The notes under the pieces were generated by a model that worked only from the letters and a program-made list of their open reading frames with translations, ran no database searches and was not told the origin of the DNA. The position numbers were made by a program, and so were the translations under genes. From IMG/VR virus record IMGVR_UViG_2870464427_000002: a stretch of 17,788 bases of DNA; one strand, 5' to 3'. Below, in pieces: positions 766 through 17,788 of the stretch (the first letter of the stretch is position 1; each line of letters starts with the position of its first letter). The DNA comes from a virus (Duplodnaviria; Heunggongvirae; Uroviricota; Caudoviricetes).

Positions 766-781
766 TGCCCGGCGTTATTTT
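754..781 (+). terminator. Rho-independent terminator of the nucleotidyltransferase gene
   Basis: CGCCGGGC (754-761), loop GTGAT, GCCCGGCG (767-774), then TTATTTT. The 8-bp stem is perfect, and the T-tract is present only on the plus strand. Confidence 0.6.
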
Positions 782-3516: not shown

Positions 3517-3518
3517 TA

Positions 3519-4235: not shown

Positions 4236-5343
4236 CGCTGACTCCGGCAATCGTGACGTCTATTGCAGTGCATTCCGCCCATTCATGCGCCTGCAAAATA
4301 CGTTTTGTAGGCATATTCAGCGCAACGTCATAGACGCCATCGACCTGTAACACTTTGATTATCTGGTTTGGCACAATGTCCTGCCCCAGATGTTTCTGCC
4401 GCTGTTGCGTCCAGAGGCTAATCGCTTTACGCGCCGCAGCCAGCGTTGTCTCCTGATCGGCGGTGGTAAACAGCATTAGCTGCGCACGGATCTCATACGG
4501 CACTCGAAGAGCGCATTTCGCACTCACTTTGTCGGTCAGCGGTCGTTTTTTCTCCTTGCTGACTTCTTGTTCAATCTGCGCCAGCAACTCCGTGCCGGGT
4601 AGACCATTCAGGGTTAGCGGGTAGATCTCCACGCAGCCTTCTGGCAATCCCTCGTCCGGCCCCAGTACTGCAACGTCAATAATCGACTGGCTAACAGAAA
4701 GCGTATGAAAGCGGTAGGCACCATAGCTGCCCGCATTACTAAAGCTTTCTGGTGCCAGTTGGATACGCTGGCGCAATGCGTCATCGCTCTCTTCACCGCA
4801 GCCGCCCGTTGACGCAGTCAGGTTGGTTACGTTGATGTCATAATGACCAATCCTGTCGACCAGTGCGCTAATTTGTGCAGGCTGCCAGCCGTTACCCTGT
4901 TCACCTGCTGCGAGGCTGGTGGCAGGAACGGCGATATGCAAACTCCTGGCCGGAAGCAGAACATCTTCATCGGTGGCGAACATCACGCTATCAGAGGCAC
5001 TGGCCCGCGTCCCCTGGGGAATCAGGATATTGCCGGGATACGCACTAACGACCGAAAACTGCAACGTCGTTTTTGCAGGCTGCGCAGGCAAACGGTGAAC
5101 TCCCACCAACTCCCCTAAATAATCCAGCATTGGCGCGCGGGAATACGCGACCAGGTTTTGTTTCGCCGCTTCCTGAATGGCGATGCGTACAAGGTTTTCA
5201 CGATAGGCAAACAGGTCGATGAGCAACCGCTCAGCCTGTGCCGGATAGAGTTTTTTACCACTGGCATCTTCGTATTGCGCAATCATCTCACTGGTAATTT
5301 GCGCAGGATCGCGGTCAATAAAATTGGGTTCGGCTATCGCCAT
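4228..5343 (-). CDS. Baseplate wedge protein, P2 gpJ / Mu gp47-like
   Basis: 371 aa. N-terminus FIDRDPAQITSEMIAQYEDASGKKLYPAQAERLLIDLFAYRE is typical of the Baseplate_J family. It overlaps the W stop by 10 nt. Confidence 0.9.
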   Translation of the reverse strand: MAIAEPNFIDRDPAQITSEMIAQYEDASGKKLYPAQAERLLIDLFAYRENLVRIAIQEAAKQNLVAYSRAPMLDYLGELVGVHRLPAQPAKTTLQFSVVSAYPGNILIPQGTRASASDSVMFATDEDVLLPARSLHIAVPATSLAAGEQGNGWQPAQISALVDRIGHYDINVTNLTASTGGCGEESDDALRQRIQLAPESFSNAGSYGAYRFHTLSVSQSIIDVAVLGPDEGLPEGCVEIYPLTLNGLPGTELLAQIEQEVSKEKKRPLTDKVSAKCALRVPYEIRAQLMLFTTADQETTLAAARKAISLWTQQRQKHLGQDIVPNQIIKVLQVDGVYDVALNMPTKRILQAHEWAECTAIDVTIAGVSDG

Positions 5344-5693
5344 AACACCTCCGTTGAGTTGATAACGCCGTCAGCGGCGCGCCATTGCACACGTAACGTC
5401 AGATGTTCGCCGTCGATTACTGGTGTCACCTTCAGCAACCGACAGCGCGGTTCCCACTGGCGGATGGCTTCCACCGACTCCCGTACCACATGCGGGATAG
5501 CCCGCTCGATGGGGTAATCGATGTAGTGCCACAAGTTGCTGCCAAACAGCGGTCTGTGGGGATCACTGCCGCGCGGTGTACGCAGAATGATGTGTATTGC
5601 CTGGTGAATATCATCCAGCCCGCAGACGTATTCTTCAGGCCGCTGCAAGGCCGGTTGCCAGTGCAGCGTTGAGGGGCGTGTTTTTGTGTTCAT
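5334..5693 (-). CDS. Baseplate wedge protein, GPW/gp25 family (P2 gpW-like)
   Basis: 119 aa. GLDDIHQAIHIILRTPRGSDPHRPLFGSNLWHYIDYP aligns with the P2 W core (ILRTP.GSR....YGS). No recognisable Shine-Dalgarno sequence precedes the ATG. Confidence 0.88.
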   Translation of the reverse strand: MNTKTRPSTLHWQPALQRPEEYVCGLDDIHQAIHIILRTPRGSDPHRPLFGSNLWHYIDYPIERAIPHVVRESVEAIRQWEPRCRLLKVTPVIDGEHLTLRVQWRAADGVINSTEVLWR

Positions 5694-5756
5694 GAGGGTA
5701 TTTTCGCCCTGAACGGGCTGTGGAGATATTAAAGCGATTTAGAAAACTGATTGATT

Positions 5757-5786
5757 AAAAAGAGAAAACCCGCCATCAGGCGGGTT
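5757..5786 (-). terminator. Intrinsic terminator inside the tail cluster, between gpV and gpW
   Basis: On the minus strand: AACCCGCC-TGAT-GGCGGGTT followed by TTCTCTTTTT. It starts 5 nt after the gpV stop. Confidence 0.6.
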
Positions 5787-5791
5787 AAAAG

Positions 5792-6493
5792 TCAGTGTGA
5801 ATGGTGGTTGGAGTTGCCACCGCTGTCCTGCAATGCGCCGCTGGCCTGAACGTTGCCGATCACGTTGACATTGCCGGTTATCGTGGCTGCGTTACCGATG
5901 CCTCCACTTCCTGCCATCCCGCCAAGCCAGGTGAGTTTTTTCATTACCGTGACGTTGCCAGTAAAGGTGCTCATGGGCGCATCTACCGTCACTGCTGCTG
6001 CTTTAACCTCGACCTTAGTGGCGTCGATGCTGACATCGGTCGCTTTAACATCGACGGTATCGGAAGTCACGGTGACGTGTTGGGCTTTAATCTCAACGTT
6101 GGGCGATGTCAGGCGGGTGCTGTCGATAACCTCAATCACGATTTTCTCGATACCGCCGTTAATCGTCAGCTGGTGCGTGCTGCGGTCATATTCAAACGCT
6201 GCGCCATCAGAAAACTGGACGTAACGTTTGTCGCGCGAGGCTACAGGCGCGGTGTCAACCGTAGAATAAACGGCACCCAGCACCACGCCATCTTCACCGT
6301 TATCGTCCAGCAGAACTTCCACTTGCTCGCCCATATCCGGTAGCCAGTAGTCTTTATTGTCCTGGGAATTGCGTTGAAGTACCGCAAGCCAGTTGCTCTT
6401 CAGATTGTCACACTCTGGTAGAGTGACCCGTACCCGAACACTGGTTTCGTCAATATCGCTGATAATCCCCGTTTGACGGGTTACTCCTTTCAT
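5792..6493 (-). CDS. Baseplate central spike, P2 gpV / Mu gp45-like
   Basis: 233 aa. The N-terminus is OB-fold-like (GIISDIDETSVRVRVTLPECDNLKSNWLAVLQR). The C-terminus has beta-helix-like repeats (VTVTSDTVDVKATDVSIDATKVEVKAAAVTVDA) and a His-rich tip, NSNHHSH. A strong RBS, AGGAGGAAAT, precedes the ATG. Confidence 0.9.
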   Translation of the reverse strand: MKGVTRQTGIISDIDETSVRVRVTLPECDNLKSNWLAVLQRNSQDNKDYWLPDMGEQVEVLLDDNGEDGVVLGAVYSTVDTAPVASRDKRYVQFSDGAAFEYDRSTHQLTINGGIEKIVIEVIDSTRLTSPNVEIKAQHVTVTSDTVDVKATDVSIDATKVEVKAAAVTVDAPMSTFTGNVTVMKKLTWLGGMAGSGGIGNAATITGNVNVIGNVQASGALQDSGGNSNHHSH

Positions 6494-6502
6494 ATTTCCT
6501 CC

Positions 6503-7543
6503 TTACTGGCTGGTCGCTGGCCCGCGTGACACGTCGATTTCAGTGGTATAGCCGCTGCGCACAAAACTGTGAGTAGATTTATCAATCAGCCACTGACCGG
6601 AAATCACGCCAAAATCGGTCAGTTCAATTTTATTGCCCGCCGTCAGTTCCGGGCAGCCCATCATTGTGAGCGTTCCGGTTTGCTGATATTCGTTGTGGCT
6701 GTCGAGTGCAGCGTTAGCCTTTGCCTGTGCTGCGCCAACGTCCGTCGCCCGACTGTTCAGTTTTAGCGTGTCGGCACTAGTGCCGACTCCACGGACAGAT
6801 GGTTTTTGCTGGCTGTTGTGAGTGTAGATAACCAGTTCTTTTTTCTTACTATTTTGATGCTGTACGGTGGCGTTCTTGTAGATCCGGTTAATGGTGTCTT
6901 TGAAGGTAAAATGAGAAACCTCTTTGCGATCGATCTTTTTCACAGGCGTCAGGCAGCGCAGCGTGGGTAAATGTGAAAAAATCAGCTCTTTTGTCGTCAC
7001 TTTTACGGCATAACCATATTCACTGGCCAGACGTTTGAGAAATCCGACATCGGTTTCACCATACTGCGTTACCCGGTCGATGGTGAGCGACTCGATTTTG
7101 CCCACCAGTTTCAGACCGTGCGTTTGGGCAATACGGCTGGCGATCGCCGAAAGCGTCGTTTCTTCAAAGCCCTGGCTGTTACGGGTGCGCAGCGCCTGAT
7201 TGACGGAAGTGGCGATGCCATCAATATTTACCGTGGAAGGTGGCGCTGAAATATCAATTTTATCAATAATATACTGGCCACAATCGAGCAGCTTTTCCCC
7301 CTGATAACCTATATGCAGCGCCAGCGTATCGCCTTTGCCGGGATACCACTCTTTTATCCAGCGTCCATCTGTGTCATCCAGTGTAATTGCGATGGTATCC
7401 GACTCGTTTTTGATGCTGTCGTGGTAACTGATGCTGGTGACATAGGGTGTGATGTCATAAGTGATATCTTTATGCCCATACCAGAGGGTAAAAATGGGCG
7501 TGAGTGTGGCAAAGACGCCACCAGTTACGCTCATCTCAGCCAT
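6503..7543 (-). CDS. Baseplate hub protein, P2 gpD / Mu gp44 (late control D) family
   Basis: 346 aa. Its position follows X and precedes V. The motifs ETDVGFLKRLASEYGY and the C-terminal GNKIELTDFG...GQWLIDKSTHSF...GYTTEI are typical of the gpD family. Confidence 0.88.
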   Translation of the reverse strand: MAEMSVTGGVFATLTPIFTLWYGHKDITYDITPYVTSISYHDSIKNESDTIAITLDDTDGRWIKEWYPGKGDTLALHIGYQGEKLLDCGQYIIDKIDISAPPSTVNIDGIATSVNQALRTRNSQGFEETTLSAIASRIAQTHGLKLVGKIESLTIDRVTQYGETDVGFLKRLASEYGYAVKVTTKELIFSHLPTLRCLTPVKKIDRKEVSHFTFKDTINRIYKNATVQHQNSKKKELVIYTHNSQQKPSVRGVGTSADTLKLNSRATDVGAAQAKANAALDSHNEYQQTGTLTMMGCPELTAGNKIELTDFGVISGQWLIDKSTHSFVRSGYTTEIDVSRGPATSQ

Positions 7544-7740
7544 GGTGGGATCTCCGATAAGGTTTTATTAACGGAAATGACCGGAATAATGAGCTGAATA
7601 CCGGAAGGCAGTACCGGGTAAATGGCTACATGTGGATTGGCGGCGATTATGCGTTCATAAGCCAGCGCATCACCGTAGTAATGCCATGCCAGGTTATCCC
7701 AGCGTTCGCCATCGGTGGTGATATGTTCAAGGTATCGCAT
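7531..7740 (-). CDS. Tail protein X (P2 gpX-like, LysM-like)
   Basis: 69 aa. TTDGERWDNLAWHYYGDALAYERIIAANPHV...LPSGIQLIIPVI matches the gpX pattern. TAATG overlap with the upstream gene. Confidence 0.85.
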   Translation of the reverse strand: MRYLEHITTDGERWDNLAWHYYGDALAYERIIAANPHVAIYPVLPSGIQLIIPVISVNKTLSEIPPWLR

Positions 7741-8693
7741 TACCAGCTCCTGGTAATGGTTACGGCAGCAAGCTGGCTCACTGCGGGAGTGGTTTGTTGT
7801 ACCGTTGTACGTGCCTGCTCAACCAACGACGTGGCTTTATCGAACGTCGCTTCGGCGATGTCGCTGGTAATGTCGTCGAAAAGCGCCTGAGCATGGTCAA
7901 CCAGCGTACTGGCGTCATTGGCGCAGTCCCGGATACCTGGCATGTTACCCAGTAAAGCTTTAATCTGCGCCGACAACGCTTTTGGTAGGCCTGCCAGCGT
8001 TTGCAGATCCATTGGCTGTTTAAACAGGGTTTCGATGGCGTCGATTGTCTTTTTCAATGACGTAATTATCTTTTCACACTTTTCTTTTAACGCTTTGGCC
8101 TCTTTAATCATTGCTTTCACTTTTGCCACCGTTTTTTTAATATCTTCAATGGATTGTGTCAGTTCATCCAGCATCTCTTTGGCCTTACGCATACCTTCTT
8201 CAATGGCGTTTAATATCTGATCAAACCAGGACTCCACCTTGTCGGGAAAATCGCTCGCCTTTTCCTCGATGTTGGGCTCCTGGGTGGTAATCGCCGGAGG
8301 TAAAAGTGGATTTTTAGGATCGCCGGTGTACTCCTGGAGCGACATCGTTCCGTTTTGGGCAATCACATTGCCCCAGGGATCGGTGTGCTGGTGGGTGGCG
8401 GTTAGCTCCGTAATCACAAACCAGCCGCGATAATCGCCATTGCCAAATACCAGTGCCATCGCCTTGTGAGCAAGCATGGCTTCACGCAGTCGGTTCAGCT
8501 CTGTTGTGGGCTGGCAAAACTGGCTGTGCAGGGAAAATTCCAGCGCCAGCATATCCAGCTTATCGCCAATAAACTGCACGCCGGGTTTGCCTTCTATACG
8601 GGCATGTGTGGCGTAATCCACGCCCATTGTGCTTTTAAAGCCGTCCCAGAATGTGACAACCTTAAATTCAATCTCTCCTAAAACGGCATACAT
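7740..8693 (-). CDS. gpU-like tail protein fused to a ~190-aa coiled-coil extension (occupies the Mu N/gp43 slot)
   Basis: The first ~125 aa (MYAVLGEIEFKVV...THARIEGKPGVQFIGDKLDMLALEFSLH...GNGDYRGWFVITELTATH) resemble P2 gpU. The rest is a K/E-rich helical repeat (MRKAKEMLDELTQSIEDIKKTVAKVKAMIKEAKALKEKCEKIITSLKKTIDAIE...). TAATG overlap with the tape-measure stop. Confidence 0.75.
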   Translation of the reverse strand: MYAVLGEIEFKVVTFWDGFKSTMGVDYATHARIEGKPGVQFIGDKLDMLALEFSLHSQFCQPTTELNRLREAMLAHKAMALVFGNGDYRGWFVITELTATHQHTDPWGNVIAQNGTMSLQEYTGDPKNPLLPPAITTQEPNIEEKASDFPDKVESWFDQILNAIEEGMRKAKEMLDELTQSIEDIKKTVAKVKAMIKEAKALKEKCEKIITSLKKTIDAIETLFKQPMDLQTLAGLPKALSAQIKALLGNMPGIRDCANDASTLVDHAQALFDDITSDIAEATFDKATSLVEQARTTVQQTTPAVSQLAAVTITRSW

Positions 8694-11068
8694 TAGGCAT
8701 ACCCCCGGCGCTGCTGCTGCGCCATTACATCGTTAATCATTCTTTCCAGTTCGCGTTTACTCATCGTCAACACGTTCTGAATCTCTTTAGTGGTGTTTTG
8801 TCCGTTACCCTGCACGGTAATTTGTGGCGAAAAATTCACCTGAACTTTTCCTGAGGAACGGGAAGGTAGCGTCGCCGCTTTGGTTACGGATTTACCAGGT
8901 AAAGAGGCAGATACGGGTTTGGCGGCTGTATTTTTTGCCGCTGGCGCCGATGACGGCGTAGCCGTTTTGCCGGATGGCGCGAGTTGTTTGCCCACCGGCG
9001 GCGTTAAAATCGCACCGGCAACGCCTGGAACAACGGTCGCGGGGGAGACGGATGCGGTATTAGTCGTGCTTGTAATAGCTGTAGCCGATCCTTCTGTACT
9101 AATACCCATCGTGGTTTTTAGCCAGTCTGGGATGGCGTTTTTTACCTGATCAATAATGCCTTTCAGAGCGGGGAAGGCATTCATTATGCCGTCAACCAGA
9201 CTGCCCAGAAGATTGCTGCCGAACTCGCTAAAACTTGCAGGCATCTCGACACCAAACCAATTCATCACACTGGAAAAGGCGCTATAGAACAACTCCAGCG
9301 GTGACCAGTCGAGAATCAACCGACAAATTCCTGCAATGCCGCCGTCAAAGGCCGTGGTGATACGTTGCCAGATGGTCGAAAAGAACCTGGAGATAGGCTC
9401 CCAGTTGCGATAAATCAGATAAGCAGCGCCCGCAATCGCAGTGATGACCAGACCAATGGGATTCATCAGTAGCACCCGGCCTAGTGAGAGAACGGTCCGA
9501 CCAACCAGTTTCAATGTTCCAATCAGGCCACGACCAAGCAGTTGCGTTAGCCATTTTGCGCCGCCACCCAATGACTTAACCGCTGATAGCATCTTACTTG
9601 CCCCGCCTGTGAGCGCCAGACTTGCCTTGACTTTCAGGAAGATATCGACCAGACGAATAAACGGCGAGGTGATGAGGTTCGCGCCCAGCTTTAAAACATT
9701 CAGCGCACCGTTAAACAGCCAAATCGCCCCGACGATTTTCGCGATGTTTTGCACCAGTGTCGGGTGCTCACGTAGCCAGGCGCTGAACTGACGAATAACC
9801 GGCGTAAGGCTTTGTGCCAGCTCGCCAATCAGCGGCATTAATTGCAAGCCAATGCTGAGCCATAAATCATTTAACGCCAGCTGTAACGCTTTAGTCTGTT
9901 CAATGGGCGAGGCCATTTGCGCAGAAAAGTCGGCATCAATCAGATTCTTGCTGGTGGCTTGCATGGCAGAGGCTTTTAACTGGCGATATTCCTCCATATT
10001 CGCCAGCATAGGGGCCAGGAATTCCACTGTTTGCGCATCGCCGAACATTTCCCCCAGATTAAACTGCGTCACCATCGATTGCAGCGCATTGCTGCGGGCA
10101 GATAAATCTTCGATCTGCATGGTGCGTTTGAAGGTGTCGAGGATCGCCGGATTCATCTTCTCAAGCTGCATTTGCACGATATGAGTCATGGCTTCGCTAA
10201 CACCCATACCGTTTTGCTGATGCTCAAGCAGAGAGCCTTGCAGATCAACGCCCTGGCTGACGAACCAGTAATCGGTTTTTTTCGAAAAGGTGGTTTGCAG
10301 AAAGTGGTCGAAATTCTCCGCCGCCGCACTGGCGCTGGCCCCGTTTTTCATGGCGATCTGCATGGTGGCGGTCAGTTCAGCCATACCTTCCAGACCCTGA
10401 GCGCCGGTTTTACCTGCAAATTTCTCTATCCACTGCGTTTGTTCAGCAATGGCAGGCCCACCGCTTTTGCTAATGCCGTACATCATGTTTTGCGCGGCGT
10501 GGAAATTTTCCGGGGCAATATTCAGTCGATCATGGGTTGCGAGCGCGGCATTCGCCCATGTTTCAGCACTTTCGCGCGTGGCGGTGGCAGCTTTGGCGAT
10601 CTCCGGCATATAACGGTTGAGATCCTGTATCGACGACAAATTGCCTTCGATCAGCGTTTGGGCTGCGTTCTGTAAGGTGGTCTGCTGCTGGTTAAAATCC
10701 ATGCTCCAGTCGCGCAGATTAAGGCTGAGCGTCTCGCGGGTTGTAGCATTCATCCCACCTTTGGTCGCCATATTGACCATGTTGTCCTGAAACTCATACG
10801 GCAACTTCCAGTCGGGGGCTTCAACATTGAATACTTTGCTAAATTGCCCGGCAAATGTTTGGGTTTTCTCCATCAGATTAGCGCGGCTGCGGCTATTTTC
10901 CTCCAGGCGGAGAGCGGAATCGGCAAGCTGCTGCGTTAGTTTGATAACTGTCGCCTGCTGAGTAGAGAGAGTTAACAATGTTCTGGCGTTGAGTGAGCCG
11001 TAACGGGCTATTGCCTGCGTCAACGTCTCATTACGCGCCTGAAGCTGGGTAATAATATCGTTGGCCAA
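8693..11068 (-). CDS. Tail tape measure protein
   Basis: 791 aa. Helical N-terminal half, a cluster of hydrophobic segments at about residue 400-640, and an Ala/Pro/Ser/Thr-rich linker near the C-terminus. It sits after the chaperone gene. The only available start is TTG 11068, because a stop lies 4 codons upstream, and the SD (AGAGAA) is weak. Confidence 0.88.
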   Translation of the reverse strand: MANDIITQLQARNETLTQAIARYGSLNARTLLTLSTQQATVIKLTQQLADSALRLEENSRSRANLMEKTQTFAGQFSKVFNVEAPDWKLPYEFQDNMVNMATKGGMNATTRETLSLNLRDWSMDFNQQQTTLQNAAQTLIEGNLSSIQDLNRYMPEIAKAATATRESAETWANAALATHDRLNIAPENFHAAQNMMYGISKSGGPAIAEQTQWIEKFAGKTGAQGLEGMAELTATMQIAMKNGASASAAAENFDHFLQTTFSKKTDYWFVSQGVDLQGSLLEHQQNGMGVSEAMTHIVQMQLEKMNPAILDTFKRTMQIEDLSARSNALQSMVTQFNLGEMFGDAQTVEFLAPMLANMEEYRQLKASAMQATSKNLIDADFSAQMASPIEQTKALQLALNDLWLSIGLQLMPLIGELAQSLTPVIRQFSAWLREHPTLVQNIAKIVGAIWLFNGALNVLKLGANLITSPFIRLVDIFLKVKASLALTGGASKMLSAVKSLGGGAKWLTQLLGRGLIGTLKLVGRTVLSLGRVLLMNPIGLVITAIAGAAYLIYRNWEPISRFFSTIWQRITTAFDGGIAGICRLILDWSPLELFYSAFSSVMNWFGVEMPASFSEFGSNLLGSLVDGIMNAFPALKGIIDQVKNAIPDWLKTTMGISTEGSATAITSTTNTASVSPATVVPGVAGAILTPPVGKQLAPSGKTATPSSAPAAKNTAAKPVSASLPGKSVTKAATLPSRSSGKVQVNFSPQITVQGNGQNTTKEIQNVLTMSKRELERMINDVMAQQQRRGYA

Positions 11069-11158
11069 AATTGTTTCTCTTTAAATATTGATAATGGCCC
11101 GCTGGTTATTTTTCTAAAAAAAGGGGCAGGGAAGAAATAAACCTGACGGGCTTGGGAA

Positions 11159-11183
11159 ACTCGCAGACATCAGGTCTGCGAGT
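11159..11183 (-). other. Perfect 10-bp stem-loop in the chaperone-to-tape-measure spacer
   Basis: ACTCGCAGAC / 5-nt loop / GTCTGCGAGT. The UGA that closes the E'-like frame lies in the loop. No proper U-tract follows. Confidence 0.5.
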
Positions 11184-11391
11184 CATATTCGATTTTTATT
11201 TGGGCGCTGGCTTCATCCAGCCAGTTGCTAAAGTCATCGACGGTAAGGGCGTCTATCTCACTGGGTGGAAAGCGAAACCATCTCGCCAGTAACGCCATCG
11301 CTTGCCATAACAGTGGCGGATTCTGTAGCCACGCTAAGCATGGATTGAAATCGTTTCTGCAATGCCTGGTAATCCAGCAAATCCATTTCAG
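11170..11391 (-). CDS. E'-like extension frame of the tail chaperone, reachable only by a +1 (= -2) frameshift
   Basis: A stop-free frame of 73 codons plus its stop, with no useful start codon. It overlaps the last 134 nt of the gpE-like gene and continues 88 nt beyond it, encoding ...PPSEIDALTVDDFSNWLDEASAQIKIEYDSQT. The span from 11575 to 11170 is 406 nt (3n+1). Confidence 0.5.
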   Translation of the reverse strand: MKWICWITRHCRNDFNPCLAWLQNPPLLWQAMALLARWFRFPPSEIDALTVDDFSNWLDEASAQIKIEYDSQT

Positions 11392-11575
11392 CTAAATCTT
11401 CTGGCACCAGTCCGGTCATTGCCGCCATTAGCGGTTCATCCCACTCTTCAGGTTTTTCGCTGATCCGGCGCGCGTTGCGCATATCTTTTACTTTCAGGCG
11501 ACGTAATTGCAGAGTGTTAATTACGTCTCCCGCCGCTGAAGTAAACGGGAACTGTAAGATATAATGTTCTTTCAT
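11258..11575 (-). CDS. Tail assembly chaperone, P2 gpE-like
   Basis: 105 aa sitting between the tube and tape-measure genes. FPFTSAAGDVINTLQLRRLKVKDMRNARRIS...LVPEDLAEMDLLDYQALQKRF fits the gpE/gp41 chaperone family. RBS is AAGGA. Confidence 0.8.
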   Translation of the reverse strand: MKEHYILQFPFTSAAGDVINTLQLRRLKVKDMRNARRISEKPEEWDEPLMAAMTGLVPEDLAEMDLLDYQALQKRFQSMLSVATESATVMASDGVTGEMVSLSTQ

Positions 11576-11601
11576 TTTGTGTCCTTATTTATTTTGCAAA
11601 G

Positions 11602-11621
11602 TTCGGGGCCGTAGCCCCGAA
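11602..11621 (-). terminator. Stem-loop between the tube and chaperone genes (weak terminator or attenuator)
   Basis: TTCGGGGC / 4-nt loop / GCCCCGAA. On the minus strand it is followed only by CTTTGC, so termination is probably partial at most. Confidence 0.4.
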
Positions 11622-11625
11622 TAAC

Positions 11626-12150
11626 TTAGCCACCGATGTTATTGCGATAGGTACTTAATTGATCCACACCATTAACCCGGAAAATATTGGCCATATAATC
11701 AAGTTCAAGCAGCGTTTCACCATCAACTACTTGTTTAATATAAGTGCAACCAAAGGCGCTGCTGAATTCCGGGTTTTCATTCTGTTTAAATGTGCCCAGT
11801 GGATTCTTTTTAAACATCACGGTTAAATGTGTCACTAGCGCTAATTGATTCGCTTTCCCCTGGGAGTTATAGCAATCAATACTGGAGCGGCACTGTAATG
11901 CAACCGCCTGCCACGGGTTTGCCGTTTTACGCATTACGTCCTGATAGAAGGAGTTCCATTTAATTTCGCCCTCCAGTTTATCGAAACCCGCCGGGAGTTC
12001 GATTTTACCCACCATGCCCAGTGCTTTATGCTCCTGCATAATTAAACTGACATCCGGCAATTTAATTTCGGTTGCACGACCTAAAAGGTTATTACCATCG
12101 AGATAAATATTGGCGTTGGTAATACGGTTAATTTGAATTTTTCCAGCCAT
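11626..12150 (-). CDS. Tail tube protein (P2 FII-like)
   Basis: 174 aa directly after the sheath gene (TAATG overlap). ITNANIYLDGNNLLGRATEIKLPDV...GMVGKIELPAGFDKLEGEIKWNSF matches the contractile-tail tube family. Confidence 0.9.
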   Translation of the reverse strand: MAGKIQINRITNANIYLDGNNLLGRATEIKLPDVSLIMQEHKALGMVGKIELPAGFDKLEGEIKWNSFYQDVMRKTANPWQAVALQCRSSIDCYNSQGKANQLALVTHLTVMFKKNPLGTFKQNENPEFSSAFGCTYIKQVVDGETLLELDYMANIFRVNGVDQLSTYRNNIGG

Positions 12151-13573
12151 TAGCTATTGCTCTCCAGAGAGACTAAATATTCAGAAGTAATTTCAGTTTC
12201 AAACGTCAGACGTTCCAGCGGCGGCGGCGGGGTGAATTTATAGCTCAGCAATAAATGCCCAGCGCTGAGTTCAGTCGGTGAATTTCGCGCCGGATCGTAC
12301 CAGCATTCAAAGCCAAGCAGTGCGCCGTCGGCAATCAGCTTACGGCCCCAGGTATTTACCGATTCGGTCAGGGCATCAATCAGCGCCTGATTAATCGGCA
12401 TATCAATATACTGCTGACTGAAATAACGGATTGACTCATTAATTACATCGCCTGTCCGGCGGACGTTTTCAAAGTTACGCATATGGGTCACGGTAGGCCA
12501 CGCTGCAGTGCGGTTGCCCCACAAGCGCAGACCAGAGCCGTAACTATTGAAAATAGTGGTAATGCCGTTTTCGTTTAGCTGATTCACTTCGCTTTGTGGA
12601 TCATCAATCATTGCGGAAAGCGAACGTTCAATACCGGTAATACCCTGAATTTCTTGGTTTGAGTTGCTCCACCAGAAACCTTTTTCGAGGTCTACTTTGG
12701 CACGTAGCCCGGCAGCGCGCGAAGAGAGCGGTTCGAGAACTTCCTGGTTAGTGATGCCATCGTAAACTTTGACGTGTGGGTAACATAAACGCGCACGATC
12801 AGAGCTGGTGTTGAAGTTGATAGCCCCTTGCGAACCGCGTCCTGCCAATACCTGCTGGAATGTCGTCCCAATCGGGGCATCAATGTAGGTAATCGCACCA
12901 AGTTTTTCCGCTTGTGCAATCAGCTCTGTAGTTACTGATTTTTGCGTACAGAACACGGGAGCAAGCAGGATTTTGGCGTAGAAACCATACAGGTTATAGG
13001 TGTCCTGTAGCAGTTTCATCCCCGTGCGGTCGCCTGCGGTATTTACGGTACCGATAATATCGGCTGCGGTGACCTTTGTAGGGTCGCACCAGGAATAATA
13101 GGCACAAACTTTCGCACCAGGAGGAATGTCGGCTCCTTTACGGGTAATTATGCCTGTTTGTTCATCTACGCTAAATGCTGCGGTGTTAAAGGTTGATGAA
13201 TTTGATGAAGAGGGCTTTAGTACCACGTTACGCACATTGCGGTGAGCGAGCTTCGCCTGGTTGTTAGCATCAAAAGTGATACTCTCATTGCTGATGTTGG
13301 AGCCATGTTTTGCCGGATCCAGCACGTTAATCACCACCACCGTACCGGCACCGTGGTCATAAATTGCCTTCAGTGCCTGTGGGATCGTAAAGTTAGCCTG
13401 AGTCGAGCCAAACTGCGCAGCATCGCTTTCAGAAAGGCATAATGTTGGTTTATTTACCGGACCGCAGGGGCTGTACCGATTAAAGCGATGACGGCGGATT
13501 TTACCGCTTTAACCGGACGCGGGCCGGTTTCAATTTCAATAGTTTCTACACCGTGCAGATAATTAGCTGCCAT
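12150..13573 (-). pseudogene. Tail sheath gene (P2 FI / Mu L family) broken by a 1-nt frameshift
   Basis: ATG 13573 opens MAANYLHGVETIEIETGPRPVKAVKSAVIALIGTAPAVR*, with the stop at 13454-13456. The sheath sequence continues in the -1 frame as PCGPVNKPTLCLSESDAAQFG...VVVINVLDP down to 12150. One extra C in the C4 run (plus-strand GGGG, 13467-13470) restores a 474-aa ORF. Confidence 0.8.
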
Positions 13574-13760
13574 GTACAATTTCCTCTACGTTATTTTGTT
13601 CTTCCTGAGTGATGACAGGAGTCAGATGATTGCGGGCAATCATGGTCATGACCCACTCGTTGTCTTCTGGCAGATCAATTTCACTGTTCGGCCACAATAA
13701 GATTTCTTGTCCATCGGCAAGGGTGACGCCGCTTGCTGGGCCGTTGTAGATGTATTTCAT
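13563..13760 (-). CDS. Small tail-associated protein (Mu-like gp38 / DUF2635-type slot)
   Basis: 65 aa. ATGA overlap with the upstream gene, and its end overlaps the sheath start by 11 nt. Size and position match the small ORF that precedes the sheath gene in Mu-like tails. Family recall is from memory only. Confidence 0.55.
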   Translation of the reverse strand: MKYIYNGPASGVTLADGQEILLWPNSEIDLPEDNEWVMTMIARNHLTPVITQEEQNNVEEIVHGS

Positions 13761-14212
13761 TCAGTTTCCTCGTAGTTAACTTCCGTAAGCAGGGGAAGAT
13801 CCGTGCTTTCCTGTTCAGCGATAAATAGCGAGCTGGTCGCCATTTCCAGGATGTAGCGGCAGAAACCGCCGCTCTCACCCGTATTAATTTCTTTTTCAAG
13901 CCAAAGAAGACGATCGCAATCAGGAAGCTGAAGGCCACCCAATGCGCTGCGTATGTGATCAAGTGCGTTTAATGCATCACAATTTTTGCCAACAATAACG
14001 GTGGCGGTTAAGCGGAGTATTTGCTGTTGCACGATGGCATTACTGCTTTCGGGCGTAGCAAAGACAGAACCGCTATAATTAATAATCACTGCAACTCGTT
14101 GTGTCTGTGGAATATATTTCTGGGCATCCTTAGATGAAATAAATATATCCATTTCGGAGTTGTGTTCACGTAATCTGGTCACAACAGAATTCATTACAGA
14201 TAAAATTTCCAT
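13757..14212 (-). CDS. Tail completion/terminator-like protein (Mu-like gp37 / DUF1834-type slot); first gene of the tail operon
   Basis: 151 aa. It is the first ORF after a strong terminator and a promoter-like region. The N-terminus ILSVMNSVVTRLRE resembles gp37-family starts. The assignment rests on position plus a weak pattern match. Confidence 0.5.
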   Translation of the reverse strand: MEILSVMNSVVTRLREHNSEMDIFISSKDAQKYIPQTQRVAVIINYSGSVFATPESSNAIVQQQILRLTATVIVGKNCDALNALDHIRSALGGLQLPDCDRLLWLEKEINTGESGGFCRYILEMATSSLFIAEQESTDLPLLTEVNYEETE

Positions 14213-14275
14213 ATAGGCTGTACCTTAATTACCGCTCACTTCGTTATCGTTGAAATGTATTCTGAAGCAGCGAAG

Positions 14276-14284
14276 GTGAAGAAT
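14276..14284 (-). promoter_or_regulatory. ATTCTTCAC motif upstream of the tail operon (candidate activator-dependent promoter element)
   Basis: The identical 9-mer occurs upstream of the lysis operon at 15627-15635. Here TCTTCA-N17-TACATT gives a poor -35 and a fair -10. ATTAAAAG lies immediately 5' of the motif. Confidence 0.3.
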
Positions 14285-14319
14285 CTTTTAATGTGATTTA
14301 GAGAAAAAATTGAATGGTT

Positions 14320-14353
14320 AAAAAAATCCCCACCCTTACATAAGGGTGGGGAT
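14320..14353 (-). terminator. Strong intrinsic terminator separating the lysis cassette from the tail operon
   Basis: On the minus strand: ATCCCCACCC-TTATGTAA-GGGTGGGGAT followed by TTTTTT. It starts 3 nt after the stop of the 104-aa gene. A T-run is also present on the plus strand, so it could act in both directions. Confidence 0.8.
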
Positions 14354-14356
14354 TTT

Positions 14357-14671
14357 TCAATAACTGCCACGTTGTAACAGCTCGATTTTGCTATATAAGG
14401 CATCCAGCTTCGCTTCTAATACTGCTTGCCCACGAAGATAATCTTCTCTGCGGACATAATGCAGCGGAAGCTCGGCACGAAATTCGAGAAATTCTCTTTC
14501 CAGTTTCGACCAACTTGTTTCTGATTCCCGGCGCGCGTTTTCCAGAGATTCAAAACGCTCATTAAGTCGTTTTTCAATTTGTGCTAACAGCAGTTTTCCG
14601 GCAGCAAACATTAATCCAACGAAGGAAAGCATAAGGGAGATCACTTCCCAAAAATCGATACTGAGTTTCAT
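14357..14671 (-). CDS. N-terminal TM plus coiled-coil lysis accessory protein (i-spanin-like or Mu gp25/DUF2730-like)
   Basis: 104 aa. One TM segment (WEVISLMLSFVGLMFAAGKLLL) followed by heptad-like helices (IEKRLNERFESLENARRESE...LEAKLDALYSKIELL). RBS is AGAGGGG. It is the third gene of the lysis cassette. Confidence 0.55.
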   Translation of the reverse strand: MKLSIDFWEVISLMLSFVGLMFAAGKLLLAQIEKRLNERFESLENARRESETSWSKLEREFLEFRAELPLHYVRREDYLRGQAVLEAKLDALYSKIELLQRGSY

Positions 14672-14683
14672 CGGCCCCTCTGA

Positions 14684-15289
14684 TTAATGAAGACAGCTTG
14701 CCTGTCCCCAGAGTAAATAGCGGGCGGCATGTTGATAGAGGATCATCTTTGGATAGCGACGATTTTCTCGCCAGTTCGTGGCGCTGCGCCCGGCGTTGAC
14801 TTGCTCAACATGACCAAACCAGCTAGTGGCATCTAACCCTTTGGATGCAGCCAGTTTTTTATCCCGGTTAACCCACCCCTGACCGCCGTTATAGGCGCTT
14901 AGGGTAAACGCCATACGCTGACAATCATTTTTCGCAGAGATGTTTTTCCACAAATGCTGGTCATATTGCACCAGCGCGCGAATCGCCCAGGTTGGGTTAT
15001 ACGGTTTGTTTTCACGCAATTGTGGATACAACTGGCTTATCCATGTCGCTGTAGCAGGCATAAATTGCGCCATACCTTGTGCGCCAACGGGGGAACGTAC
15101 CATTGGCTGCCAGGCGGACTCCTGGTGTAATTGCCCGGCAAAGTCGGCCACTGGGGCATTCAGCCCCCAGACTTCTCGAGCTGTACGAATTAGTTCGTTT
15201 CGCCATGCCAGAGAGGCTCTCGGCGGTTCAGAGGCGTTGAGTGGGAAAAGAACGAAAATAATCATAGACGCGATATATTTCAGCCACAT
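14684..15289 (-). CDS. Lytic transglycosylase (SLT domain) endolysin with an N-terminal signal or signal-anchor
   Basis: I prefer ATG 15289 (MWLKYIASMIIFVLFPLNASEPP...), 2 nt after the upstream stop. The tracked start at 15388 overlaps the holin-like gene. SLT motif: LHQESAWQP...GAQGMAQFMP.TA...SAYNGG. Confidence 0.85.
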   Translation of the reverse strand: MWLKYIASMIIFVLFPLNASEPPRASLAWRNELIRTAREVWGLNAPVADFAGQLHQESAWQPMVRSPVGAQGMAQFMPATATWISQLYPQLRENKPYNPTWAIRALVQYDQHLWKNISAKNDCQRMAFTLSAYNGGQGWVNRDKKLAASKGLDATSWFGHVEQVNAGRSATNWRENRRYPKMILYQHAARYLLWGQASCLH

Positions 15290-15291
15290 CA

Positions 15292-15579
15292 CTATAGCCC
15301 TAACGCGACGGAAAGGCAGACGGCAGCAACGATGATAGCCCGGCGAATCATTGCCGCCGCGCAGCAACGCGGTTCCTTCCAGGGGCAAAAAGAGTCAGGC
15401 CGTGCCCAGGGGAACAAACTGCGATCGAGCCAGTATCCCAGCACCGCGGAAAGCGAAACCAGGCTTAGTTTATAAATGACGACCGGGATTTGTGCTGAAG
15501 AGGTCCAGCCGATCACGACAAACAGCGCGACGGAAGCGACCAGCCAACCGGAAAGCCGGGGAAGAGTGACTTTTTTCAT
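15292..15579 (-). CDS. Small three-TM membrane protein, putative holin
   Basis: 95 aa with three hydrophobic segments (WLVASVALFVVIGW; IPVVIYKLSLVSLSAVLGYWL; AIIVAAVCLSVALGL). It is the first gene of the cassette, immediately upstream of the endolysin. RBS is AGGAG. Confidence 0.5.
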   Translation of the reverse strand: MKKVTLPRLSGWLVASVALFVVIGWTSSAQIPVVIYKLSLVSLSAVLGYWLDRSLFPWARPDSFCPWKEPRCCAAAMIRRAIIVAAVCLSVALGL

Positions 15580-15626
15580 ACGGTATCTCCTGATAAGTGA
15601 GCGTTTAGTGTCGCCAGAACCCGCCA

Positions 15627-15635
15627 GTGAAGAAT
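15627..15635 (-). promoter_or_regulatory. ATTCTTCAC motif upstream of the lysis operon (candidate activator-dependent promoter element)
   Basis: Same 9-mer as at 14276-14284, lying 48 nt upstream of the holin-like ATG. ATTAAAG lies 8 nt further 5'. Confidence 0.3.
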
Positions 15636-15853
15636 GAAAAAAGCTTTAATAAATAAGTTTAAAAAATAGATTCTCTATAAATGAACATGCCCGCTAATAA
15701 ATCCACTCAGCAATTAAAGAGCAAAAGGTGACCTCGCGAATAAGCGCGTCATTATGCAGGGAAAAGATGATGGTGAATCGTAGGAATAGTCAGTAGTTAT
15801 TTGATTTTTAAAGTTTGTTTAAGAAAGTCAGCGACTGTGAGGGAAACGATCTT

Positions 15854-15881
15854 TTTACACTACAAGTAAAAATAATACTGT
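15854..15881 (+). promoter_or_regulatory. Candidate rightward sigma70 promoter overlapping the left SOS half-site
   Basis: TTTACA (15854-15859), a 16-nt spacer, then TACTGT (15876-15881). The -10 candidate is the left arm of the reconstructed LexA box. In the present state it points into the IS. Confidence 0.3.
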
Positions 15882-15889
15882 ATGTGTAT
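15876..15889. promoter_or_regulatory. Left half of an IS-split LexA (SOS) box
   Basis: TACTGT+ATGTGTAT directly abuts the IS left end. Confidence 0.7.
15882..15889. repeat. Target-site duplication, left copy (ATGTGTAT)
   Basis: Identical 8-mer at 17206-17213, immediately outside both inverted repeats. Confidence 0.85.
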
Positions 15890-15919
15890 GGGTCTTCCCT
15901 TGTTGTGGTGGCTGAAGGC
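15890..15919. repeat. IS left inverted repeat
   Basis: GGGTCTTCCCTTGTTGTGGTGGCTGAAGGC, compared with the reverse complement of the right end, GGGTCTTCCCCGATCATGGTGGGAAGGC. The first 10 nt are identical and the TGGTGG and GAAGGC blocks are shared. Confidence 0.8.
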
Positions 15920-15956
15920 ATGATAATGGTGTATTTAATCGCCAGAGGTCACCGCC

Positions 15957-17177
15957 ATGGACGAAAAGTCCCTCTACGCTCATATTCTCAACCTGTCCGA
16001 TCCGTGGCAGGTAAAGTCCCTTTCTCTCGATGAAAATGCCGGTTCTGTTACTGTCACTATTGAGATCGCTGAAAACACCCGGCTAGCCTGTCCGACCTGC
16101 GGTAAATCCTGTTCTGTTCACGATCACCGTCATCGTAAATGGCGCCATCTTGATACCTGCCAGTTCACCACTATTGTTGAAGCCGATGTTCCACGAATTA
16201 TGTGTCCGGAGCATGGCTGCCTGACGTTGCCTGTTCCGTGGGCTGGCCCCGGAAGCCGGTATACGTTGCTATTCGAATCGTTCGTTCTCTCATGGCTGAA
16301 AATCAGCACCGTTGATGCTGTCAGGAAGCAACTTAAGCTCAGTTGGAATGCGGTTGACGGCATTATGACCCGGGCAGTTAAGCGAGGTCTTGCCCGGATA
16401 AAAAAGCCATTATCCGCCCGTCATATGAATGTGGATGAGGTCGCCTTTAAAAAAGGACATCGTTACATAACGGTGATCTCCGATCGCGATGGTCGGGCGC
16501 TGGCCTTAACGGATGATCGCGGCACAGAGAGTCTTGCCGGCTATCTTCGCACGCTCACTGATGGGCAGTTGCTGGCTATCAAAACGCTCTCAATGGACAT
16601 GAACGCGGGCTATATAAGAGCAGCGCGTATCCACTTACCCAGTGCGGTTGAGAAAATCGCCTTTGACCGCTTCCATGTGGCGAAGCAACTGGGCGAGGTA
16701 GTTGATAAAACCCGTCAGAATGAACATCCGCACCTCCCTGTTGAAAGCCGACACCAGGCAAAAGGAACCCGCTTCCTGTGGCAGTACAGCGATAAGTGGA
16801 TGACCGAATCCCGGCAGGAAAAGCTGATGTGGCTGCGTGCACAGATGAAGCTGACGAGCCAGTGCTGGGCGCTGAAAGAGCTGGCAAAGGATATCTGGAA
16901 CAGGCCATGGAGCGAGGAAAGACGGAGTGACTGGCAGAGATGGTTGGCGCTGGCGGCTAACAGTGACGTTCCCATGATGAAAAATGCCGCGAAAACGATA
17001 GGAAAAAGGCTGTACGGGATCCTGAATGCGATGCGACACAGTGTCTCAAACGGAAATGCGGAGGCACTTAACAGCAAGATCAGGCTGCTGAGGATAAAAG
17101 CCAGGGGATACCGAAACCGGGAGCGCTTTAAACTGGGGGTGATGTTCCACTACGGAAAGCTGAATATGGCGTTCTGA
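15957..17177 (+). CDS. ISL3-family transposase
   Basis: 406 aa. N-terminal zinc-finger (CPTCGKSCSVHDHRHRKWRHLD), a DDE_Tnp_ISL3-type core (MNVDEVAFKKGHRYITVISD) and the C-terminal GNAEALNSKIRLLRIKARGYRNRERF. The stop lies just inside the right inverted repeat. Confidence 0.9.
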   Translation: MDEKSLYAHILNLSDPWQVKSLSLDENAGSVTVTIEIAENTRLACPTCGKSCSVHDHRHRKWRHLDTCQFTTIVEADVPRIMCPEHGCLTLPVPWAGPGSRYTLLFESFVLSWLKISTVDAVRKQLKLSWNAVDGIMTRAVKRGLARIKKPLSARHMNVDEVAFKKGHRYITVISDRDGRALALTDDRGTESLAGYLRTLTDGQLLAIKTLSMDMNAGYIRAARIHLPSAVEKIAFDRFHVAKQLGEVVDKTRQNEHPHLPVESRHQAKGTRFLWQYSDKWMTESRQEKLMWLRAQMKLTSQCWALKELAKDIWNRPWSEERRSDWQRWLALAANSDVPMMKNAAKTIGKRLYGILNAMRHSVSNGNAEALNSKIRLLRIKARGYRNRERFKLGVMFHYGKLNMAF

Positions 17178-17205
17178 GCCTTCCCACCATGATCGGGGAA
17201 GACCC
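17178..17205. repeat. IS right inverted repeat
   Basis: GCCTTCCCACCATGATCGGGGAAGACCC, the reverse-complement partner of 15890-15919. Confidence 0.8.
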
Positions 17206-17213
17206 ATGTGTAT
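17206..17213. repeat. Target-site duplication, right copy (ATGTGTAT)
   Basis: Identical to 15882-15889. Confidence 0.85.
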
Positions 17214-17219
17214 ACAGTA
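17206..17219. promoter_or_regulatory. Right half of an IS-split LexA (SOS) box
   Basis: ATGTGTAT+ACAGTA directly abuts the IS right end. Confidence 0.7.
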
Positions 17220-17240
17220 TCGTGTAAAATGATACACCTG

Positions 17241-17271
17241 TTGACAAGAAACATAACGCAAACAATATATC
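17241..17271 (+). promoter_or_regulatory. Candidate sigma70 promoter for the Mor-like gene
   Basis: A perfect -35 TTGACA (17241-17246) followed 17-19 nt later by AATATATC. There is no perfect -10. It would give a leader of about 165 nt. Confidence 0.35.
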
Positions 17272-17440
17272 TATTTCATGAATTTATGGCGTTCATTAAT
17301 ATTAAAAATTTATATTTTTGTTAATTGTTTATTTGTTTGTTGAATGTATTGAGTAGCAGTAATGACAACTGCTTAGCGTATATCCGTGGTTTTACACGCA
17401 TCGGGTCTTATTCAGGATGCAAGATATATGGAGATGAAAA

Positions 17441-17788
17441 ATGATACGAAAATCAAAAGAGATGGCCCGGACACCGGAGATCATTAACGACCTGGCTTTT
17501 CATGCATCGCAAGTTCTGATTGAAAGCATCAATCTCGACAGTTCATCGGCAGAAAATGTGGGCTTTGCCATTGCCGACCGAATGATGCGTAACTGGGGCG
17601 GACAAAGCATTTATTTCCCTAAGGGGATCTCCGGACGAGCATCGGAGCGTGACTACCAAATCTATAGCGAGTGCGATGGGCGCAACTACGCCGAATTAGC
17701 GAAGAAATATAATCTGACGCTGCAATGGATTTATAAGATTGTGAAACGCGTACATGCGGAAAAGCAACAGCGCCGCAGTAATTCGTAA
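17441..17788 (+). CDS. Mor/C-family transcriptional activator (Mu middle/late regulator family)
   Basis: 115 aa ending in TAA at the window edge. NWGGQSIYFPKG...SERDYQIYSECDGRNYAELAKKYNLTLQWIYKIVKR matches the Mor family core and its C-terminal HTH. RBS is GGAG. It is divergent from the lysis/tail cluster. Confidence 0.85.
   Translation: MIRKSKEMARTPEIINDLAFHASQVLIESINLDSSSAENVGFAIADRMMRNWGGQSIYFPKGISGRASERDYQIYSECDGRNYAELAKKYNLTLQWIYKIVKRVHAEKQQRRSNS

Follow-up and report, generated by a model that had tools for sequence, protein, structure and literature searches.

How is an activator gene controlled when about 220 nt of very AT-rich DNA separate it from a LexA box that has itself been broken in two? 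The question is raised by a 17,788-nt record of IMG/VR (IMGVR_UViG_2870464427_000002, assigned to Caudoviricetes; hereafter the window, meaning that whole stretch of DNA), which is Escherichia coli chromosomal DNA, and in which 227 bases (17214-17440) run from the right half of the box to the start codon of the gene for a Mor-family transcription activator (hereafter mor; Table 1). We aligned 22 distinct versions of the sequence from the LexA box to the ATG (one further locus, L046, has many indels, apparently from a low-quality assembly, and was left out), and three parts of this alignment behave differently. With about even confidence, we read the 227 bases as the activator-proximal half of a divergent control region, a composite of the remnant of an SOS promoter module, a promoter in an AT-rich core (P2), and a 5′ untranslated region (UTR) of about 117 nt, and not as one leader; that all 220 nt form a single leader, as the initial annotation had described them, is uncertain. 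The region belongs to known kinds of control region and is not a new kind, and in this strain an insertion sequence (IS), ISKox3, has probably cut it off from SOS control.

The minus strand of the window from 780 to 15579 carries a contractile-tail gene set, whose promoter-proximal end encodes a spanin-like membrane protein, an SLT lytic transglycosylase, and a holin (15292-15579). The divergent mor product contains the PF08765 domain at full length, as a Mor/C family activator should. An IS-free copy of the island (L001, from strain 2016C-3878) is 99.99% identical to the window and lies between yjbD and lysC; because this copy has no head, integrase, or replication genes, we call the island tail-only and R-type tailocin-like, a label given on gene content. 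It was found in 196 of 5426 complete E. coli genomes, and orthologous islands with the same divergent holin/Mor layout, mostly adjoining lysC, occur in Salmonella (STM4213-STM4219), Dryocola, Phytobacter, two Superficieibacter species, and Enterobacter hormaechei. A literature search on this island found no paper, and it looks like a native R-type tailocin, apparently uncharacterised, that E. coli shares with Salmonella and related enterics.

At the operator end, the window does not contain the palindrome (TACTGT, eight AT-rich bases, ACAGTA) in one piece: its halves (the "split LexA box" of the initial annotation) are separated by ISKox3, and removal of the IS restores TACTGTATGTGTATACAGTA. 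The L001 allele lacks ISKox3 and is otherwise 100% identical in the box region, and a perfect CTGT-N8-ACAG box is found in the same place in seven of the eight lineages and in the IS-free alleles. The element (named ISKox3 in RefSeq) has the inverted ends GGGTCTTCCC and GGGAAGACCC; its transposase gene (15957-17177) has the same orientation as mor, and a scan of the plus strand between the two genes found no terminator-like site. The same box position is interrupted in three backgrounds, each with its own duplication and its own flanking alleles: by ISKox3 in the window strain (ATGTGTAT), by ISKox3 in isolate 648 (ATATGTAT), and by an ISEc53-like element in IAI39/CE10 (ATGTACAT), the last in the opposite orientation and with a ClbS/DfsB passenger gene. 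Among the 196 island genomes the box region is intact in 186 and interrupted exactly at the LexA box in 10, which suggests that the tail/lysis island has repeatedly lost its SOS coupling, via IS targeting, selection, or both. A hybrid promoter composed of the IS end and the downstream TAAAAT was considered and rejected; it has no usable −35, the hexamer at 17-nt spacing being ACCCAT.

Beside the right half-site, the sequence TGTAAAAT forms the invariant part of the first module (17214-17231), and the block that adjoins the box (Table 1; ATGTAAAGTG in Dryocola) can be read as promoter sequence in both directions. Read rightward, TAAAAT (17225-17230) would be a −10 toward mor, with the box over its −35 and spacer and an A-rich tract upstream; read leftward, TTTACA (minus strand, 17229-17224) would be a −35 and, 16 nt on, TACAGT in the left half-site its −10. 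The combination TTTACA-16-TACAGT is the sole consensus-grade promoter (9 of 12 matches) that the scanner called in the IS-free intergenic region, in E. coli as in Salmonella. The box of IS-free alleles is thus predicted to overlap the spacer and −10 of the leftward promoter and the −35 and spacer of a possible rightward one, and one LexA box is probably common to back-to-back promoters in intact alleles. In Enterobacter the LexA box is lost and the TAAAAT reading alone is kept: the E. hormaechei islands beside lysC (L042 and L043) have no LexA box and retain TATAAAATGG and the proximal UTR blocks. To judge from their sequence, these two loci are natural variants without direct SOS control.

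The core is set apart by its composition, and here the "very AT-rich" of the initial annotation exceeds chance, which the other features that it listed do not. The most AT-rich 100 bp of the window (17246-17345, 81% AT) and its longest stretch at ≥70% AT (17204-17404) both fall in this region, GC drops to 19% at 17250-17349, and runs of A and T can be read at 17296-17342; an "H-NS-prone" region, as the initial annotation put it, would be consistent with this composition. The core has many indels between genera, and blastn returns no alignable sequence between it and Salmonella. A pair of overlapping −10 hexamers on opposite strands is found in both E. coli (AATTTATATT) and Salmonella (AATTTATAAT), and TTTATATTT is invariant among the E. 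coli alleles. In S. Typhimurium SL1344, start sites were mapped by differential RNA sequencing in early stationary phase, with promoter sequences listed from −50 to +1 (Ramachandran et al., 2014; PMC3963941, Table S7). This table gives a primary plus-strand start at 4459159 for SL1344_4155/STM4219 (coding sequence 4459279-4459626), hence a 5′ UTR of 120 nt, with a promoter that ends in ...TTTAATTTATAATTAAATGCG and whose −10 is a perfect TATAAT in the AT-rich core; it also gives a primary minus-strand start at 4459135, 24 bp away, assigned to the STM4218 holin operon. The mapped STM4219 start lies about 124 nt downstream of the LexA box, and the minus-strand start uses the overlapping hexamer TAAATT.

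The distance of the plus-strand hexamer from the ATG is −130 in E. coli and −133 in Salmonella; both read AATTTATAWT, the E. coli one 3 nt closer, and in most lineages a strong −10-like hexamer falls in the range −130 to −155. The initial annotation had proposed a second, LexA-independent promoter built on the perfect TTGACA of this region: such a promoter within the AT-rich stretch is supported by the Salmonella start, and the TTGACA is not its element. By analogy, P2 of E. coli would have a plus-strand start at about 17324 (and so a UTR of about 117 nt), just at the 5′ edge of the conserved segment treated below, and a minus-strand start at about 17300. Since the plus-strand start is so placed as to serve a real downstream gene and its position is kept between the genera, P2 may be a functional promoter rather than noise.

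Variation in the proximal segment was counted over nine E. coli alleles, for comparison with the DNA just upstream (15 of 100 sites variable) and with the coding sequence (17 of 348); the segment is the least variable of the three (Table 1), and it contains the sequences common across genera, namely TTGAATGTATTGA, the pair GCACC...GGTGCA (GCATC...GATGC in the main E. coli lineage), and ATATGGAGAT. The initial annotation had suggested a structured leader, and this suggestion is not supported: folding is no better than in shuffled sequence, no Rfam family matches the leader at E≤1, and there is no covariation. RNAalifold finds a sole consensus pairing, a 5-bp GCACC:GGUGC helix (covariation term +0.19), for which we see no compensatory changes, just one A-U to G-U, and of which the main E. 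coli lineage lacks both strands. On the plus strand of the leader a scan found no terminator-like site. A structured cis-regulatory RNA (riboswitch, thermometer, or attenuator) is thus indicated neither by family nor by fold stability or covariation, and any action of the conserved blocks may depend on their sequence, in DNA or in RNA, rather than on a fold.

Several other candidates in the region were discarded. The small open reading frame (ORF) at 17279 (MNLWRSLILKIYIFVNCLFVC) has no Shine-Dalgarno sequence, and in other E. coli alleles it reads GTG..TGA and stops early. A six-codon mini-ORF (MQDIWR; ATG 17417 to TGA 17435-17437) lies over the ribosome site of mor. Several lineages preserve its frame, but indels interrupt it in Salmonella and Enterobacter, and in a Superficieibacter sp. 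it is joined to mor; we regard it as a by-product of sequence conservation. Comparison by eye of TTGAATGTATTGA with the sigma-54, CRP, PhoP, Fur, ArgR, and IHF consensus sequences gave a near-IHF site on the minus strand alone, which is too degenerate, and CsrA-type GGA pairs near the ribosome site are present at chance level.

Table 1. Features of the mor control region and its surroundings (positions in the window; an empty strand cell means that no strand applies).
Feature	Position	Strand	Basis or remark
ISKox3 (ISL3 family), 1316 bp	15890-17205	+	Splits the LexA box; Pfam DDE_Tnp_ISL3, HTH, and Zn-ribbon domains
Target-site duplication ATGTGTAT, 8 bp, equal to the LexA box spacer	17206-17213 (right), 15882-15889 (left)		Read from sequence
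Right LexA half-site ACAGTA	17214-17219		Left half TACTGT at 15876-15881, 1.3 kb away; 221 nt to the mor ATG at 17441
Box-adjoining block GTGTAAAATG	17222-17231		Invariant in 21 distinct leaders; TGTAAAGT in Dryocola
Fast-evolving AT-rich core	17232-17331		15/100 sites vary among 9 E. coli alleles; 81% AT maximum
TTGACA, chance −35-like hexamer, probably no promoter element	17241-17246	+	No −10 partner; polymorphic; in 24% of shuffles
AATTTATATT, overlapping −10 hexamers, proposed bidirectional P2	17307-17316	both	TATATT on + (17311-17316), TAAATT on − (17312-17307)
Conserved proximal segment, probable mor 5′ UTR	17332-17440	+	2/112 sites vary in E. coli
TTGAATGTATTGA, block common across genera	17340-17352	+	Alignment
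AGCAGT-N7-ACTGCT hairpin, lineage-specific	17355-17373 (arms 17355-17360 and 17368-17373)	+	Main E. coli alleles only; none in other genera
GCATC...GATGC	17398-17402, 17416-17420	+	E. coli counterpart of GCACC...GGTGCA just upstream of the Shine-Dalgarno region elsewhere
ATATGGAGAT, block common across genera	17426-17435	+	Shine-Dalgarno GGAG at 17430-17433
Mor-family transcription activator gene	17441-17788	+	115 amino acids; PF08765 E 7e-38, residues 10-112; RefSeq annotation Mor family

Published Salmonella expression data bear on this composite reading. STM14_5073 (348 nt, plus strand), which by its size and position (about 21 kb from yjbD) should be the Mor orthologue, has 49 transcripts per million (TPM) in LB medium and 204 with nalidixic acid, a 4.1-fold rise, and the neighbouring tail genes are missing from the differential-expression list (PMC8072944, Dataset S1). 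These values fit a basal LexA-independent promoter together with some damage response and control downstream of mor transcription. A number of points weigh against the composite. The 4-fold response to nalidixic acid is confounded by growth state (ribosomal genes rise 40-fold), and the gene is not among the SOS genes listed in the same study (PMC8072944). The Salmonella starts were seen in early, not late, stationary phase (PMC3963941), and the E. coli P2 rests on positional analogy with them; promoter-like hexamers are common in DNA of 80% AT, where starts can be pervasive or spurious, and the consensus scanner made no P2 call in either species, since a good −35 is missing. The excess constraint on the proximal segment is not reproduced within Salmonella, where 12 of 120 UTR sites vary against 9 of 93 upstream, and the constraint on the 3′ half in E. 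coli may partly be haplotype structure. A post-transcriptional role of the UTR would also have to do without support from RNA structure, the folding energy relative to shuffles being z = +1.14 for 17237-17470 and z = −0.62 for 17340-17460.

A simpler arrangement would have one SOS promoter (−10 TAAAAT, start near 17237), with the whole 204 nt that follow as 5′ UTR, an AT core whose main role is to bind H-NS or other nucleoid proteins and thereby silence the island, and Salmonella starts that are pervasive and non-regulatory; we consider it rather unlikely. TAAAAT is invariant right after the box and is kept in Enterobacter, and an UP-element-like A-rich tract lies left of the box in all lineages. 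The core, for its part, has the extreme composition expected of H-NS targets (a long stretch above about 70% AT, here 17204-17404, with a peak of 81%) and evolves at about the silent-site rate, as expected if composition alone matters; three near-matches to the H-NS motif TCGATAAATT with two mismatches fall in the region, and are weak, such matches being expected in AT-rich DNA. The condition dependence of the Salmonella starts points the same way. On the other hand, no start at the box is reported in Salmonella (in samples without SOS induction), TAAAAT has a poor −35 (CTGTAT) and no scanner call, and there is a mapped start with a perfect TATAAT at a position that agrees within 3 nt between E. 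coli and Salmonella; moreover, an uninduced TPM of 49 needs either a LexA-independent source or leaky repression. If the box instead controlled only the leftward holin/tail promoter, mor would never be under SOS control and would be transcribed from P2 only, and 17214-17310 would be upstream promoter DNA. This we judge unlikely: the leftward promoter is the one consensus-grade call in the IS-free intergenic regions of both species, Dryocola keeps its TGTAAA and has TAAAAT weakened to TAAAGT, and the mor orthologue is absent from the SOS genes of the Salmonella study (PMC8072944), but conservation runs beyond TGTAAA to TGTAAAATG, and Enterobacter keeps TAAAAT while the TTTACA reading decays to TTTATA and the leftward −10 is gone. 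An SOS tail promoter 290 nt upstream of the holin would also be partly redundant with the conserved late-promoter-like block near that gene, and in Salmonella nalidixic acid induced no tail genes and raised the mor orthologue 4-fold.

The remaining alternatives place a different promoter inside the stretch. Mor-dependent promoters of phage Mu have no −35 and use a site overlapping the −35 position instead. By this model 17340-17380 could be an activator binding site and promoter, for example for Mor autoregulation, with TTGAATGTATTGA about 23-25 nt upstream of a TAnnnT (TAGCGT, 17374). In five of the six lineages examined TTGAATGTATT is indeed followed, at 23-25 nt, by TAGCGT, TACGCT, TAAAGT, TACGCG, or TAGCGG, yet two of the lineages lack the final T, the spacing varies (28 in Superficieibacter), no start is reported there in Salmonella, and the block is unlike the putative late promoter, the conserved block that precedes the holin gene; we think the model very unlikely. 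Still less credible is the version of the initial annotation, which takes TTGACA for the −35 of the second promoter and assigns the 6-bp hairpin to a structured regulatory leader; comparison largely refutes it. TTGACA is a perfect −35 hexamer, but 24% of dinucleotide-preserving shuffles of the 227 bp contain it on one strand or the other (across the window the hexamer is under-represented, with 3 occurrences against about 10 expected), and the scanner finds for it no acceptable −10, that is, no hexamer 16-18 nt downstream whose second base is A and whose sixth is T: the hexamers 17-19 nt downstream are AATATA, ATATAT, and TATATC, none of which passes. It is also polymorphic at 17245 (TTGATA in other E. 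coli alleles); the orthologous regions of Salmonella, Phytobacter, Superficieibacter, Dryocola, and Enterobacter have sequence unrelated to it, and the site that corresponds to the mapped Salmonella start is about 80 nt away. The hairpin does lie within the least variable segment of E. coli, and is of a G-C-containing type (at least three G-C pairs) seen in 4% of shuffles, whereas any perfect 6-bp hairpin with a loop of 3-9 nt is seen in 49%. As a conserved element it does not hold up: the closest sister group in Escherichia (L022, L031, and L037) reads AGCAGTAATTGCACCAACT at this position and has no hairpin, other genera have none either, and the folding scores and the Rfam search given above are unremarkable.

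Returning to the composite of SOS remnant, P2, and UTR, we can propose how its parts would work together. In intact alleles, one LexA box would serve a promoter toward mor (TAAAAT) and a promoter toward the holin/tail operon. P2 would supply a low basal level of mor mRNA from near 17324, with a divergent start near 17300, and DNA damage would add LexA-controlled transcription to this supply. The UTR blocks by the ribosome-binding site probably restrict translation of the activator or make it conditional, and the UTR may in this way set a threshold that only few cells pass to start the lethal lysis/tail programme; in most cells the programme would stay off, perhaps also through nucleoid proteins bound to the AT core. 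In the window strain, ISKox3 separates the −35 from the −10 of both candidate SOS promoters and leaves half an operator. With operator and both SOS promoters split, only P2 or read-through from the IS could then drive mor; P2 would do so alone, possibly with read-through from the transposase gene, and the island would be uncoupled from SOS. We advance only tentatively, as a possibility we rate below an even one, the general form of this proposal: three control layers over a suicidal tailocin switch (an SOS operator, a bidirectional AT-core promoter, and a translational gate in the 117-nt UTR), from which LexA-box-homing IS repeatedly strip the SOS layer and leave the AT-core promoter and IS read-through.

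The arrangement resembles several known systems. In the middle/late cascade of phage Mu, Mor activates Pm and C activates the late promoters; the activator of the island is of the same Pfam family, and the lysis and tail operon that it faces has, close to its first gene, a weak −10-like hexamer and, upstream, a strongly conserved block, as expected for an activator-dependent late promoter. Mu mor differs in being the last gene of the early transcript, without a promoter or leader of its own, and the Mu-like loci of Pasteurellaceae (L006-L017) have mor in this Mu-type early-transcript layout; the mor of the island, in contrast, stands alone and is preceded by an SOS box, by AT-rich promoter DNA, and by a UTR of 117-120 nt, and the island has no head, replication, or transposition genes. 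The R-type pyocins of Pseudomonas (RecA, PrtR cleavage, PrtN, P-box) follow the same logic, in which damage leads to an activator, the activator turns on a tail and lysis cluster, and the producer is killed. The island differs from them in apparently direct control by host LexA at CTGT-N8-ACAG, in having no PrtR-like repressor gene, and in its activator being of the Mor type and not PrtN. For a related Pseudomonas system, additional control by the H-NS-like proteins MvaT/MvaV has been reported (PMC12066065), which is the kind of layer that the initial annotation had proposed for the island.

[quoted passage not shown] The long 5′ UTR of tisB keeps its primary transcript poorly translated. The distance from the tisB LexA box to its start codon is 236 nt (PMC8072944, Table 1); the island differs in having no demonstrable antisense RNA, processing site, or standby structure, and in that a second promoter, and not a UTR, would account for part of the distance. 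In uvrA-ssb, one consensus box lies between divergent units, as it does in the island, where −10/−35 readings exist on both strands, and the sharing of LexA boxes by divergent genes has been noted (PMC8072944); the targets in the island lie 220-300 nt from the box, compared with tens of nt in uvrA-ssb. Finally, overlapping −10 elements on opposite strands are known to make bidirectional promoters in AT-rich, horizontally acquired DNA, which is often silenced by H-NS, and the island resembles such cases in the overlapping TAnnnT hexamers, in the divergent starts 24 bp apart in the Salmonella orthologue, in its 81% AT, and in its patchy distribution; it differs in that its plus-strand start is placed for a real gene at a position kept between genera.

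On the holin side of the intergenic region, two further conserved blocks were observed. The first (window 15600-15665, minus strand) is strongly conserved, reads ATTTTTTAAA(C/G)TTATTTATTAAAG, and includes the inverted repeat TTTAA-N9-TTAAA; about 30 nt beyond it stand GA(C/T)ACT and then the Shine-Dalgarno sequence of the holin gene. This block is probably a Mor-dependent late promoter, and its sequence TTTAAASTTATTTATTAAAG (15644-15663) has no repeat at ≤3 mismatches in the leader or the rest of the window. The second block (TTAAAC-AAAC-TTTAAAAATCAA; window 15790-15860, L019 2700-2760) lies left of the LexA box. Near this block E. coli has one GATC site and Salmonella has three in a span of 30 bp, and in Salmonella the block also forms a terminator-like hairpin on the minus strand; these GATC sites recall the Dam/GATC control of the Mu mom promoter.

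Other observations concern the state of the island genes. Compared with L001, the sheath gene (12150-13574, minus strand) has a one-base deletion in the G run at 13462-13466 (GGGGG to GGGG), which causes a frameshift near the 5′ end and leaves ORFs 12150-13340 and 13454-13579 in place of one 474-codon gene; the gene may be truly inactivated, or the deletion may be a sequencing error in the homopolymer. The sole substitution between the window and L001 is at 9544, in the tape measure gene (8693-11068, minus strand); the L001 copy (12811-15186) is a RefSeq pseudogene with an internal stop, and the window copy is an open frame of 791 codons. A partial Mor protein (P0014, 87% identical) is labelled Leptospira borgpetersenii in NCBI, most likely through enterobacterial contamination of the assembly.

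The insertion into the LexA box is part of a wider pattern. We scanned IMG/VR for the IS end and found 41 distinct right-end flanks, 31 of which read N8-ACAG; 17 of the 19 complete, duplication-flanked copies lie in CTGT-N8-ACAG and the other two in CTGT-N8-ACAT (loci considered: window 15876-17219, L047, L048, and L049-L100). The pattern is CTGT-N8-IS-N8-ACAG, the duplication being equal to the LexA box spacer. The same pattern is seen in a chromosomal copy, at the sbmC SOS box, and in plasmid copies at four sites, in boxes before umuD/S24-peptidase genes, including an IncX3 NDM-5 plasmid type. By these flanks, the 8-bp spacer of LexA boxes is almost the only place where ISL3 elements of the ISKox3/ISEc53 group insert; a literature search for LexA-box targeting by ISL3 elements found no description, and it may be documented elsewhere. 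Longer relatives of the IS in IMG/VR measure 1684 and 1885 bp. The passenger gene of the ISEc53-like element that interrupts the LexA box in E. coli IAI39 (L048, 667-2424) is of the ClbS/DfsB family, ClbS being of the colibactin self-protection family.

Repression of the activator decides whether the cell lyses, and the parts proposed here are separable: SOS promoter, basal promoter, and UTR offer concrete constructs for studying the bistable, few-cell firing of a suicidal weapon. In the window strain the SOS link is physically broken, which leaves the AT-rich core and the IS as the only possible sources of activator expression; if the proposal is true, IS-interrupted strains are natural "SOS-blind" tailocin variants. 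Systematic rewiring of SOS regulons (sbmC, plasmid umuD-like genes, prophage switches, and the tail island) would be expected of an IS group that targets LexA boxes, and such a group would offer a natural means of disrupting SOS boxes or a marker of their disruption; this by-product of the analysis may outweigh the finding on the leader in importance.

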